Of a DNA stretch of 64,000 bases, positions 16,504-55,444 are shown in pieces; position 1 is the first letter of the stretch, and every line of letters begins with the position of its first letter. The stretch is from Escherichia coli. GTDB lineage: Bacteria; Pseudomonadota; Gammaproteobacteria; Enterobacterales; Enterobacteriaceae. The notes below the pieces were generated by a model, which worked only from the letters and a program-made list of their open reading frames with translations, searched no databases and had not been told where the DNA came from. The stretch lies in the NCBI RefSeq assembly GCF_048403405.1, contig NZ_CP183129.1; one strand, written 5' to 3'. Position numbers and translations under genes: made by a program.

Positions 16504-18237
16504 GTGAAACAACAGATACAACTTCGTCGCCGTGAAGTCGATGAAACGGCAGACTTGCCCGCTGAATTGCCTCCCTTGCTGCGCCGTTTATACGCCAGCC
16601 GGGGAGTACGCAGTGCGCAAGAACTGGAACGCAGTGTTAAAGGTATGTTGCCCTGGCAGCAACTGAGCGGCGTCGAAAAGGCCGTTGAGATCCTTTACAA
16701 CGCTTTTCGCGAAGGAACGCGGATTATTGTGGTCGGTGATTTCGACGCCGACGGCGCGACCAGCACGGCTCTAAGCGTGCTGGCGATGCGCTCGCTTGGT
16801 TGCAGCAATATCGACTACCTGGTACCAAACCGTTTCGAAGACGGTTACGGCTTAAGCCCGGAAGTGGTCGATCAGGCCCATGCCCGTGGCGCGCAGTTAA
16901 TTGTTACCGTGGATAACGGTATTTCCTCCCATGTGGGGGTTGAACACGCTCGCTCGTTGGGCATCCCGGTTATTGTTACCGATCACCATTTGCCGGGCGA
17001 AACATTACCCGCGGCGGAAGCGATCATTAACCCTAACTTGCGCGACTGTAATTTCCCGTCGAAATCACTGGCAGGCGTGGGTGTGGCGTTTTATCTGATG
17101 CTGGCGCTGCGCACCTTTTTGCGCGATCAGGGCTGGTTTGATGAGCGCGGCATCGCAATTCCTAATCTGGCAGAACTGCTGGATCTGGTCGCGCTGGGGA
17201 CAGTAGCGGACGTCGTGCCGCTGGACGCTAATAATCGCATTCTGACCTGGCAGGGGATGAGTCGCATCCGTGCCGGAAAGTGCCGTCCGGGGATTAAAGC
17301 GCTGCTGGAAGTGGCCAATCGCGATCCACAAAAACTCGCCGCCAGCGATTTAGGTTTTGCGCTGGGGCCACGTCTCAATGCTGCCGGGCGACTGGACGAT
17401 ATGTCCGTTGGCGTGGCGCTGTTGCTGTGCGACAACATCGGCGAAGCGCGCGTGCTGGCAAATGAACTCGATGCGCTAAACCAGACGCGAAAAGAGATCG
17501 AACAGGGAATGCAAGTTGAAGCCCTGACCTTGTGCGAGAAACTGGAGCGCAGCCGCGACACGCTACCCGGCGGGCTGGCAATGTATCACCCCGAATGGCA
17601 TCAGGGCGTTGTCGGTATTCTGGCTTCGCGCATCAAAGAGCGTTTTCACCGTCCGGTTATCGCCTTTGCGCCAGCAGGTGATGGTACGCTGAAAGGTTCC
17701 GGTCGCTCCATTCAGGGGCTGCATATGCGTGATGCGCTGGAGCGATTAGACACACTCTACCCTGGCATGATGCTGAAGTTTGGCGGTCATGCGATGGCGG
17801 CGGGTTTGTCGCTGGAAGAGGATAAATTCGAACTCTTTCAACAACGGTTTGGCGAACTGGTTACTGAGTGGCTGGACCCTTCGCTATTGCAAGGCGAAGT
17901 GGTGTCAGACGGTCCGTTAAGCCCGGCCGAAATGACCATGGAAGTGGCGCAGCTGCTGCGCGATGCTGGCCCGTGGGGGCAGATGTTCCCGGAGCCGCTT
18001 TTTGACGGTCATTTCCGTCTGCTGCAACAGCGGCTGGTGGGCGAACGTCATTTGAAAGTGATGGTCGAACCGGTCGGCGGCGGTCCACTGCTGGATGGTA
18101 TTGCTTTTAATGTCGATACCGCCCTCTGGCCGGATAACGGCGTGCGCGAAGTGCAACTGGCTTACAAGCTCGATATCAACGAGTTTCGCGGCAACCGCAG
18201 CCTGCAAATTATCATCGACAATATCTGGCCTGTCTGA
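16504..18237 (+). CDS. recJ: Single-stranded-DNA-specific 5'-3' exonuclease RecJ
   Basis: 577 aa with a GTG start; DHH motifs (VVGDFDADGATS, DHH). Confidence 0.94.
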   Translation: MKQQIQLRRREVDETADLPAELPPLLRRLYASRGVRSAQELERSVKGMLPWQQLSGVEKAVEILYNAFREGTRIIVVGDFDADGATSTALSVLAMRSLGCSNIDYLVPNRFEDGYGLSPEVVDQAHARGAQLIVTVDNGISSHVGVEHARSLGIPVIVTDHHLPGETLPAAEAIINPNLRDCNFPSKSLAGVGVAFYLMLALRTFLRDQGWFDERGIAIPNLAELLDLVALGTVADVVPLDANNRILTWQGMSRIRAGKCRPGIKALLEVANRDPQKLAASDLGFALGPRLNAAGRLDDMSVGVALLLCDNIGEARVLANELDALNQTRKEIEQGMQVEALTLCEKLERSRDTLPGGLAMYHPEWHQGVVGILASRIKERFHRPVIAFAPAGDGTLKGSGRSIQGLHMRDALERLDTLYPGMMLKFGGHAMAAGLSLEEDKFELFQQRFGELVTEWLDPSLLQGEVVSDGPLSPAEMTMEVAQLLRDAGPWGQMFPEPLFDGHFRLLQQRLVGERHLKVMVEPVGGGPLLDGIAFNVDTALWPDNGVREVQLAYKLDINEFRGNRSLQIIIDNIWPV

Positions 18238-18328
18238 CGAATTTAGTATGTATAAAATTGAGCCGGGATCCGGTACAATCCCGCTCTTATCACCGCATTT
18301 TGACTAGCTCAATAAAAGAAATCAGACC

Positions 18329-19427
18329 ATGTTTGAAATTAATCCGGTAAATAATCGCATTCAGGACCTCACGGAACGCTCCGACGTTCTTAGGGGGTAT
18401 CTTTGACTATGACGCCAAGAAAGAGCGTCTGGAAGAAGTAAACGCCGAGCTGGAACAGCCGGATGTCTGGAACGAACCCGAACGCGCACAGGCGCTGGGT
18501 AAAGAGCGTTCCTCCCTTGAAGCCGTTGTCGATACCCTCGACCAAATGAAACAGGGGCTGGAAGATGTTTCTGGTCTGCTGGAACTGGCTGTAGAAGCTG
18601 ACGACGAAGAAACCTTTAACGAAGCCGTTGCTGAACTCGACGCTCTGGAAGAAAAACTGGCGCAGCTTGAGTTCCGCCGTATGTTCTCTGGCGAATATGA
18701 CAGCGCCGACTGCTACCTCGATATTCAGGCGGGCTCTGGCGGTACGGAAGCACAGGACTGGGCGAGCATGCTTGAGCGTATGTATCTGCGCTGGGCAGAA
18801 TCGCGTGGTTTCAAAACTGAAATCATCGAAGAGTCGGAAGGTGAAGTGGCGGGTATTAAATCCGTGACGATCAAAATCTCCGGCGATTACGCTTACGGCT
18901 GGCTGCGTACAGAAACTGGCGTTCACCGCCTGGTGCGTAAGAGCCCGTTTGACTCCGGCGGTCGTCGCCACACGTCGTTCAGCTCTGCGTTTGTTTACCC
19001 GGAAGTTGATGATGATATTGATATCGAAATCAACCCGGCGGATCTGCGCATTGACGTTTATCGCGCGTCCGGCGCGGGCGGTCAGCACGTTAACCGTACC
19101 GAATCTGCGGTGCGTATTACTCACATCCCGACCGGGATCGTGACCCAGTGCCAGAACGACCGTTCCCAGCACAAGAACAAAGACCAGGCCATGAAGCAGA
19201 TGAAAGCGAAGCTTTATGAACTGGAGATGCAGAAGAAAAATGCCGAGAAACAGGCGATGGAAGATAATAAATCCGACATCGGCTGGGGCAGCCAGATTCG
19301 TTCTTATGTCCTTGATGACTCCCGCATTAAAGATCTGCGCACCGGGGTAGAAACCCGCAACACGCAGGCCGTGCTGGACGGCAGCCTGGATCAATTTATC
19401 GAAGCAAGTTTGAAAGCAGGGTTATGA
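18329..19427 (+). CDS. prfB: Peptide chain release factor 2, expressed by programmed +1 ribosomal frameshift (25 codons in frame 0, shift at CUU-UGA-C near 18401-18407, then the track ORF frame to 19427)
   Basis: ATG...AGGGGGTATCTTTGAC is the classic RF2 autoregulatory frameshift site with an internal SD-like AGGGGG; the downstream frame contains the SPF and GGQ motifs ([16 protein letters not shown]); 365 aa in total. Confidence 0.93.
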
Positions 19428-19436
19428 GGAACCAAC

Positions 19437-20954
19437 ATGTCTGAACAACACGCACAGGGCGCTGACGCGGTAGTCGATCTTAACAATGAACTGAAAACGC
19501 GTCGTGAGAAGCTGGCGAACCTGCGCGAGCAGGGGATTGCCTTCCCGAACGATTTCCGTCGCGATCATACCTCTGACCAATTGCACGCAGAATTCGACGG
19601 TAAAGAGAACGAAGAACTGGAAGCGCTGAACATCGAAGTCGCCGTTGCTGGCCGCATGATGACCCGCCGTATTATGGGTAAAGCGTCTTTCGTTACCCTG
19701 CAGGATGTGGGTGGCCGCATTCAGCTGTACGTTGCCCGTGACGATCTGCCGGAAGGCGTTTACAATGAGCAGTTCAAAAAATGGGACCTCGGCGACATCC
19801 TCGGCGCGAAAGGTAAACTGTTCAAAACCAAAACCGGCGAACTGTCTATCCACTGCACCGAGCTGCGTCTGCTGACCAAAGCACTGCGTCCGCTGCCGGA
19901 CAAATTCCACGGCTTGCAGGATCAGGAAGCGCGCTATCGTCAGCGTTATCTGGATCTCATCTCTAACGATGAATCCCGCAACACCTTTAAAGTGCGCTCG
20001 CAGATCCTCTCTGGTATTCGCCAGTTCATGGTGAACCGCGGCTTTATGGAAGTTGAAACGCCGATGATGCAGGTGATCCCTGGCGGTGCCGCTGCGCGTC
20101 CGTTTATCACCCACCATAACGCGCTGGATCTCGACATGTACCTGCGTATCGCGCCGGAACTGTACCTCAAGCGTCTGGTGGTTGGTGGCTTCGAGCGTGT
20201 ATTCGAAATCAACCGTAACTTCCGTAACGAAGGTATTTCCGTACGTCATAACCCAGAGTTCACCATGATGGAACTCTATATGGCTTACGCAGATTACAAA
20301 GATCTGATCGAGCTGACCGAATCGCTGTTCCGTACTCTGGCACAGGATATTCTCGGTAAGACGGAAGTGACCTACGGCGACGTAACGCTGGACTTCGGTA
20401 AACCGTTCGAAAAACTGACCATGCGTGAAGCGATCAAGAAATATCGCCCGGAAACCGACATGGCAGATCTGGACAACTTCGACTCTGCGAAAGCGATTGC
20501 TGAATCTATCGGCATCCACGTTGAGAAGAGCTGGGGTCTGGGCCGTATCGTTACCGAGATCTTCGAAGAAGTGGCAGAAGCACATCTGATTCAGCCGACC
20601 TTCATTACTGAATATCCAGCAGAAGTTTCTCCGCTGGCGCGTCGTAACGACGTTAACCCGGAAATCACAGACCGCTTTGAGTTCTTTATCGGTGGTCGTG
20701 AAATCGGTAACGGCTTTAGCGAGCTGAATGACGCGGAAGATCAGGCGCAACGCTTCCTGGATCAGGTTGCCGCGAAAGATGCAGGTGACGACGAAGCGAT
20801 GTTCTACGACGAAGATTACGTCACCGCACTGGAACATGGCTTACCGCCGACAGCAGGTCTGGGAATTGGTATCGACCGTATGGTAATGCTGTTCACCAAC
20901 AGCCATACCATCCGCGACGTTATTCTGTTCCCGGCGATGCGTCCGGTGAAATAA
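19437..20954 (+). CDS. lysS: Lysine--tRNA ligase (constitutive)
   Basis: 505 aa, class II aaRS, directly downstream of prfB as in the prfB-lysS operon. Confidence 0.95.
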
Positions 20955-20972
20955 GCATTACGTTATGCTCAC

Positions 20973-20998
20973 AACCCCGGCAAATGTCGGGGTTTTTT
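20973..20998 (+). terminator. Rho-independent terminator after lysS, overlapping the idi stop
   Basis: AACCCC-GGCAAATGTC-GGGGTT hairpin followed by TTTT. Confidence 0.7.
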
Positions 20999-21545
20999 AA
21001 TTGTGCTGCGCGAAAGCAGACAACAATTTTCTTGCTTCACTATTGGCTGCCTGCATCACCATCCACGGACTGAACGCCCACGGCGTGGCATCAATACCGC
21101 GTAATACATCTGCTAAATCACACCATTGATAATCCATCACTTCATCATCGTTGATCTGTAATGCACTGGTCGTGCGTGCGGCAAATACCGGACACACTTC
21201 ATTTTCCACAATGCCATTCGGATCGGTGGCGCGATAGCGAAAGTCAGGATAGATAGATTCAGGAGGCGTAATTTCCACGCCAAGCTCATAACGGCAACGG
21301 CGGATCACCGCGTCTTCGTTGCTTTCTCCCTGTTGTGGGTGCCCACAAACCGAGTTAGTCCACACGCCAGGCCATGCTTTTTTGCTCAGTGTGCGGCGGG
21401 TAACTAATAATTGCCCCTTGGCATTAAACAGCCAACTGGAGAACGCGAGATGTAAGAGGGTGTCTGCCGTGTGTGCGGCATACTTTTCCAGCGTACCCGT
21501 GGGAACTCCCTGTGCATTCAATAAAATGACGTGTTCCGTTTGCAT
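20997..21545 (-). CDS. idi: Isopentenyl-diphosphate delta-isomerase (Nudix fold)
   Basis: 182 aa, [25 protein letters not shown]... Confidence 0.93.
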
Positions 21546-55370: not shown

Positions 55371-55444
55371 GCGGGCGTAGTTCAATGGTAGAACGAGAGC
55401 TTCCCAAGCTCTATACGAGGGTTCGATTCCCTTCGCCCGCTCCA
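55371..55444 (+). tRNA. glyU: tRNA-Gly (anticodon CCC)
   Basis: GCGGGCGTAGTTCAATGGTAGAACGAGAGCTTCCCAAGCTCTATACGAGGGTTCGATTCCCTTCGCCCGCTCCA: cloverleaf with anticodon loop CTTCCCAAG, T-arm GGTTCGATTCC and a CCA end. Confidence 0.95.

Follow-up and report, generated by a model that had tools for sequence, protein, structure and literature searches.

Positions 18392–18407 of the window, which is the whole 64-kb stretch of Escherichia coli DNA analyzed here, almost certainly represent the programmed +1 ribosomal frameshift cassette of E. coli prfB (probability about 0.98), a gene that occupies 18329–19427 on the plus strand. The host gene is identified by its sequence as the orthologue of the release factor 2 (RF2) gene prfB. 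All sequence elements that are listed as required in the literature (PMC12421855) are present within 18392–18407 and take on their canonical spacing. The frame change is framed by a 25-codon segment in frame 0 and a long segment in the +1 frame, and the two together encode an RF2 of 365 residues.

Anatomy of the recoding cassette

The start codon ATG of prfB is located at 18329–18331 and opens the frame-0 segment of codons 1–25 (18329–18403, plus strand), which is closed by a TGA at codon 26 in the codon numbering of the window. Read from 18329, this frame runs ATG TTT GAA ATT AAT CCG GTA AAT AAT CGC ATT CAG GAC CTC ACG GAA CGC TCC GAC GTT CTT AGG GGG TAT CTT TGA, followed by a C. The segment equals residues 1–25 of the crystallized E. 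coli RF2 (PDB 1gqe), forms the first piece of the RefSeq joined CDS, and appears in the ORF list of the window as a 25-aa peptide. The sequence-only reading of this DNA had claimed an in-frame UGA at codon 26, a slippery CUU-U, and a Shine–Dalgarno (SD)-like AGGGGG, and all three are indeed found, at 18404–18406, 18401–18404, and 18392–18397, respectively. Its transcription of the site was correct apart from codon 17, which is CGC (18377–18379) and not CGT, a synonymous difference that is irrelevant to the site.

The internal SD-like AGGGGG (18392–18397, plus strand) is constructed from codons 22 and 23 (AGG GGG, Arg-Gly), is identical to that of K-12, and lies 3 nt upstream of CTT, which is the consensus spacing of prfB frameshift sites (PMC12421855). 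By codon numbering, the spacer codon TAT (Tyr24) fills the gap at 18398–18400 on the same strand. Codon 24 of prfB sits in the E site during the ribosome pause. The slippery CTT-T, read directly from the window at 18401–18404 (plus strand), combines the Leu25 codon (18401–18403) with the first base of the stop, and CTTT is the most conserved element of prfB frameshift sites (PMC12421855). Counted from ATG 18329, the RF2-specific in-frame stop TGA (18404–18406, plus strand) is codon 26, the same codon position at which the premature prfB stop of E. coli is reported (PMC12421855). The stop is followed by a C at 18407 (plus strand) that generates the weak termination context UGAC (PMC12421855) and additionally completes the GAC codon of the new frame as its third base.

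The 16-mer AGGGGGTATCTTTGAC occurs a single time in the window, where the chance expectation is only 0.34 even with up to three mismatches allowed. Its position is exactly where the RF2 reading frame must change. The cassette match is not a chance event.

The +1 frame and the RF2 product

The +1 frame is free of stop codons from 18351, after a TAA at 18348, until the TGA at 19425–19427. The +1-frame segment of prfB (18405–19427, plus strand), which is delimited by the open frame, the RF2 alignment, and NCBIfam, extends from Asp26 to Leu365 and includes this terminal TGA. The first ATG, GTG, or TTG of the frame is the ATG at 18546, and none is present between 18351 and 18546. The statement that the RF2 body in the six-frame track begins only at 18546 is thereby confirmed. 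Because the +1 frame lacks a start codon before this position, the mechanical ORF list gives only a body of 293 aa (18546–19427) for RF2.

When 18329–18403 is joined to 18405–19427, as in a conceptual +1 shift at codon 26, a protein of exactly 365 aa is obtained, the length that had been anticipated for full-length RF2. It aligns end to end with the crystallized E. coli RF2 (PDB 1gqe; residues 1–365, 364/365 identical, E = 8e-241), with L298V as the sole difference. The joined product scores 525.9 bits with the NCBIfam prfB model TIGR00020 (cut-off 370), and the NCBIfam models for prfA (RF1) score under their cut-offs. Both RF2 hallmarks are found in the translation, namely SPF at residues 205–207 and GGQ at residues 250–252. 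Residue 246 is an alanine, encoded by GCG at 19065–19067 within the +1-frame segment. The earlier description of the site as the textbook autoregulatory recoding signal of RF2 is supported by the identity of the product, the TIGR00020 match, the RefSeq joined CDS, and a cassette equal to that of K-12.

Proposed mechanism

Ribosomes would initiate at ATG 18329 and decode 25 codons, which would bring CUU (Leu25) to the P site, with the RF2-specific UGA, in its weak UGA-C context, occupying the A site. With plentiful RF2, translation would terminate at codon 26 and the 25-aa peptide would be released. With scarce RF2, the ribosome would pause at codon 26. The AGGGGG would pair with the anti-SD of the 16S rRNA and destabilize the E-site tRNA, and the peptidyl-tRNA-Leu would re-pair from CUU to UUU. 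Subsequently, GAC (Asp26) would be decoded in the +1 frame, and translation would proceed to the 365-aa RF2. As a net effect, RF2 would limit its own synthesis. For the identical cassette sequence in E. coli, experiments have demonstrated the slippage, the pairing of SD with anti-SD, and the dependence on the RF2 level (summarized in PMC12421855). At the present locus, slippage, rRNA pairing, and RF2 dependence would apply by analogy to these prior experiments on the identical E. coli sequence.

The anti-SD of E. coli 16S rRNA is canonical (CCUCC). No rRNA gene was found in the 64-kb window with Rfam at the gathering threshold, the sole match being one tRNA. A search for a stimulatory RNA structure at 18360–18450 gave a fold no better than shuffled sequences (z = −0.30), with no hairpin or pseudoknot, and such an absence of structure around the site is consistent with the prfB frameshift mechanism. 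Likewise, no Rfam family for the frameshift site was matched, either in the whole window at the gathering threshold or in 18200–18600 at E ≤ 10; Rfam 15 seems to be without a model for the prfB frameshift site.

The 25-aa peptide on its own matched no NCBIfam family. It is very improbable that this termination product has a function of its own, or that the autoregulatory loop of the present lineage operates at a set point unlike that of K-12. A different set point can be envisaged because the Ala246 RF2 is fully active and the distal part of the recJ–prfB spacer has diverged.

The eukaryotic antizyme (OAZ) resembles prfB in its autoregulatory +1 shift, in the stop codon in the A site, and in a shift frequency that reports the regulated quantity. 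Unlike prfB, antizyme is a polyamine sensor that uses a downstream pseudoknot and upstream elements instead of SD/anti-SD pairing, and it belongs to an unrelated gene family. E. coli dnaX shares with prfB an internal SD-like stimulator upstream of the slippery site. It differs in shifting by −1 on A AAA AAG, with the SD about 10 nt upstream, in the need for a downstream hairpin, and in not being autoregulatory.

Comparison with other E. coli

E. coli TUM14771 matches the window at 100% identity over 18200–19500 and at 99.96% over 64 kb. In its RefSeq annotation, prfB is a two-piece joined CDS that carries the note “programmed frameshift,” and prfB of K-12 (b2891) is also given as a joined CDS. 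The K-12 gene is the type example, and it is base-for-base the same as the window over 18329–18409, an interval that covers the ATG and the whole cassette. It shares with the window the UGA at codon 26, the AGGGGG-UAU-CUU-UGA-C arrangement, the recJ–prfB–lysS context, and the 365-aa product. The first difference within prfB is found at codon 27, which is TAT in the window and TAC in K-12 (position 18410, synonymous), and 13 nucleotide differences are counted over the whole gene. The two proteins differ only at residue 246, with Thr246 in K-12 RF2 and Ala246 in the window RF2. Thr246 is a peculiarity of K-12 that is atypical and confers lower activity (PMC5373646). At position 246, the window RF2 is the canonical, normal non-K-12 allele.

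The present stretch is found as one copy in 5425 of the 5426 complete E. coli genomes. Over 18200–19500, only 9/5425 complete genomes are at least 99% identical to the window, and the others range between 95 and 99%. The allele of this interval is common to TUM14771, GN02461, 4621, MS 69-1, and a few others. As it is common to so few genomes, the window therefore derives either from a lineage with few sampled members or from a segment that has recombined locally. An oddity in prfB was considered as the cause of the low identity to most E. coli and rejected, since the differences over 18200–19500, which were compared directly with K-12 only, consist of synonymous sites, A246, and the diverged recJ 3′ end and spacer.

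A different allele is carried by E. coli O145 RM8995-C1 (NZ_CP031355.1; L003:1270-2367) and 51008369SK1 (NZ_CP029973.1), in which the SD-like run reads GGGG in place of GGGGG. With one G deleted, prfB is read in one continuous frame (…LRGIFDYD…), and its RefSeq annotation is that of an ordinary CDS. Among complete E. coli genomes the deletion is seen in only 2/5425, and the two are unrelated; the exact in-frame RF2 variant protein is recorded on 364 contigs in a large protein collection. Either a sequencing error in the homopolymer or a genuine sporadic loss of RF2 autoregulation would account for this allele.

Conservation across species

The motif AGGGGGTNTCTTTGAC was scanned in about 100,000 species genomes (GTDB r220, one genome per species), yielding at least 120 matches. 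In 114 of the 120 matches listed, an RF2 homologue follows directly after the motif in the +1 frame, and the alignment starts from the residue equivalent to Asp26. The remaining matches listed comprise one locus that is cut off by its end and five chance hits. The identity of the 114 listed RF2 homologues ranges from 26 to 99.7%, with E. albertii at the top (99.7%). Full-length listed loci of Bacillota, Bacteroidota, Fusobacteriota, Nitrospirota, and Gemmatimonadota show about 42–50% identity, and the lowest values (26–36%) come from listed loci shortened by a contig end. An in-frame start that places the TGA at codon 20–28 is present in all 114 listed RF2 loci, and the codons that flank the motif vary among them.

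The spacer codon of the 114 listed RF2 loci is TAT (72), TCT (34), TTT (7), or TGT (1), in a scan that fixed the first and third spacer bases as T and left only the middle base free. Other bacteria, for example Bacillota and Bacteroidota, resemble the window in the AGGGGG, the 3-nt spacer, the CTTTGAC, and a TGA at about codon 20–28, whereas loci of the Bacillota type differ in a spacer codon that is often TCT and not the TAT of the window. Since the motif was required by the scan, these counts measure the specificity of the motif for prfB and not unbiased conservation. An unbiased survey reports a premature prfB stop in 8,164 of 12,753 species genomes (PMC12421855). The consensus of the survey is AGGGGG with CTTT three nucleotides downstream, a stop codon (TGA in nearly all cases, TAG in none), and a conserved C thereafter (PMC12421855).

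Alternative explanations

The frame break could result from a sequencing error or an inactivating mutation that renders prfB a pseudogene, in line with a mechanical ORF list that shows only ORFs of 25 aa and 293 aa. However, the identical break is present in 5425/5426 complete E. coli genomes and recurs at the equivalent RF2 position in many phyla, always with the full SD-like/CTTTGAC motif, and RefSeq curates it as a programmed frameshift. RF2 is moreover essential in E. coli, which counts against a pseudogene, and the probability left for one is negligible. Two independent products could also be made without any frameshifting, a 25-aa leader peptide and a truncated 293-aa RF2 that initiates at the internal ATG 18546, the earliest start codon of the +1 frame. 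This hardly fits residues 26–72, whose codons lie in the +1 frame before 18546 and include no start codon; these residues nevertheless match E. coli RF2 exactly. The cross-species RF2 alignments begin at residue 26, right after the motif, and the crystallized 365-aa protein holds residues of both frames, so that internal initiation retains next to no credibility.

The frame might instead be restored in the RNA, by transcriptional slippage or editing at a T run, and not by the ribosome. Transcriptional slippage restores the frame in some bacterial genes, and a T3 run is present at the site. This run is, however, far below the ~8 or more A/T that are known for slippage of RNA polymerase. The conserved RF2-specific stop, the weak-context C, and the SD-like element at a fixed 3-nt spacing are sensible only if the event is ribosomal. 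Experiments in E. coli, both in vivo and in vitro, have also demonstrated the ribosomal mechanism (PMC12421855), and a correction at the RNA level is accordingly given only a minute chance. Programmed +1 ribosomal frameshifting is the reading retained for the prfB site.

Neighborhood of prfB

The gene order xerD–dsbC–recJ–prfB–lysS, with idi on the opposite strand, is the E. coli arrangement. The lysS gene (lysine-tRNA ligase; 19437–20954, plus strand) starts 9 nt downstream of the prfB stop. The two genes are probably co-transcribed, given this 9-nt gap and the prfB–lysS operon that is known in E. coli. The terminal stop of prfB is itself a TGA read by RF2 and overlaps the SD of lysS (GAGGA, in TGAGGA; window 19425–19439), and translational coupling between the two genes is possible. 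A terminator-like hairpin (20973–20994) and T-run follow lysS (20973–21004 together, plus strand; a consensus match only) and probably represent the end of the prfB–lysS transcript.

In a promoter scan of 18100–21100, no consensus sigma-70 promoter was found in the recJ–prfB spacer. The TACAAT at 18274–18279 could be a −10 box but has no recognizable −35, and it was not taken as part of a promoter. Relative to K-12, divergence affects the last recJ bases and about 35 nt of the spacer in its distal part, on the recJ side (18231–18271; spacer part 18238–18271). Identity to K-12 amounts to 84.6% over the whole spacer and is complete in the 57 nt adjoining the prfB start. An inverted repeat at 18264–18283 (CGGGAT…ATCCCG) overlaps with the diverged stretch; in K-12, the right arm of this repeat seems to be part of another hairpin.

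Stop-free antisense ORFs are located opposite prfB (18390–19394, minus strand, 334 aa) and opposite lysS (19422–20837, minus strand, 471 aa). Neither antisense ORF has an NCBIfam match; in all likelihood, both are shadow ORFs of prfB and lysS. The idi gene (20997–21545, minus strand) is 94.5% identical to K-12, compared to 98.8% for prfB, 98.4% for lysS, and 99.0% for dsbC; its divergence may be a recombination patch.

Remainder of the window

A large cluster for purine/urate catabolism and selenium-dependent molybdoenzymes takes up 23664–54124 and is colinear with TUM14771, with nothing unusual. It harbors ygfT/S, ghxQ, guaD, xanQ, xdhD, ygfM, ssnA, ygfK, mocA, yqeC, yqeB, arcC, hyuA, ygeY, dpaL, ygeW, ygeV, and xdhCBA. 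The sole Rfam match of the window, the tRNA at 55371–55441 (plus strand), is annotated as tRNA-Gly at the corresponding position of TUM14771. Between this tRNA and the ETT2 island, TUM14771 has two annotated genes, one for a family 15 glycoside hydrolase followed by one for a small toxin of the GhoT/OrtT family (about 57353–57532, plus strand). Type III secretion genes of ETT2 occupy 57878–64000 and comprise eivF, sctC, a gatekeeper gene, an EscV-family gene, and the beginning of sctN. Indels relative to TUM14771 occur only at 61442–63894, where they form a cluster in these ETT2 genes. The TUM14771 genes there are annotated as “frameshifted,” and the ORFs of the window are open at 60308–61477 and 61470–63530.

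Significance

The prfB gene is the classic case of recoding as a feedback sensor and has been known since the mid-1980s. The frameshift site described here is the type example itself and not a relative of it, and it is both already known and already annotated. A recent survey has covered prfB frameshifting in more than 12,000 genomes (PMC12421855). For annotation, the site implies that a naive ORF caller would give a truncated 293-aa RF2 or a pseudogene at this locus; the gene is intact, and a joined CDS is needed to represent it. The present copy brings no new knowledge of prfB, as its intact site and Ala246 point only to a normal, non-K-12 RF2 system.
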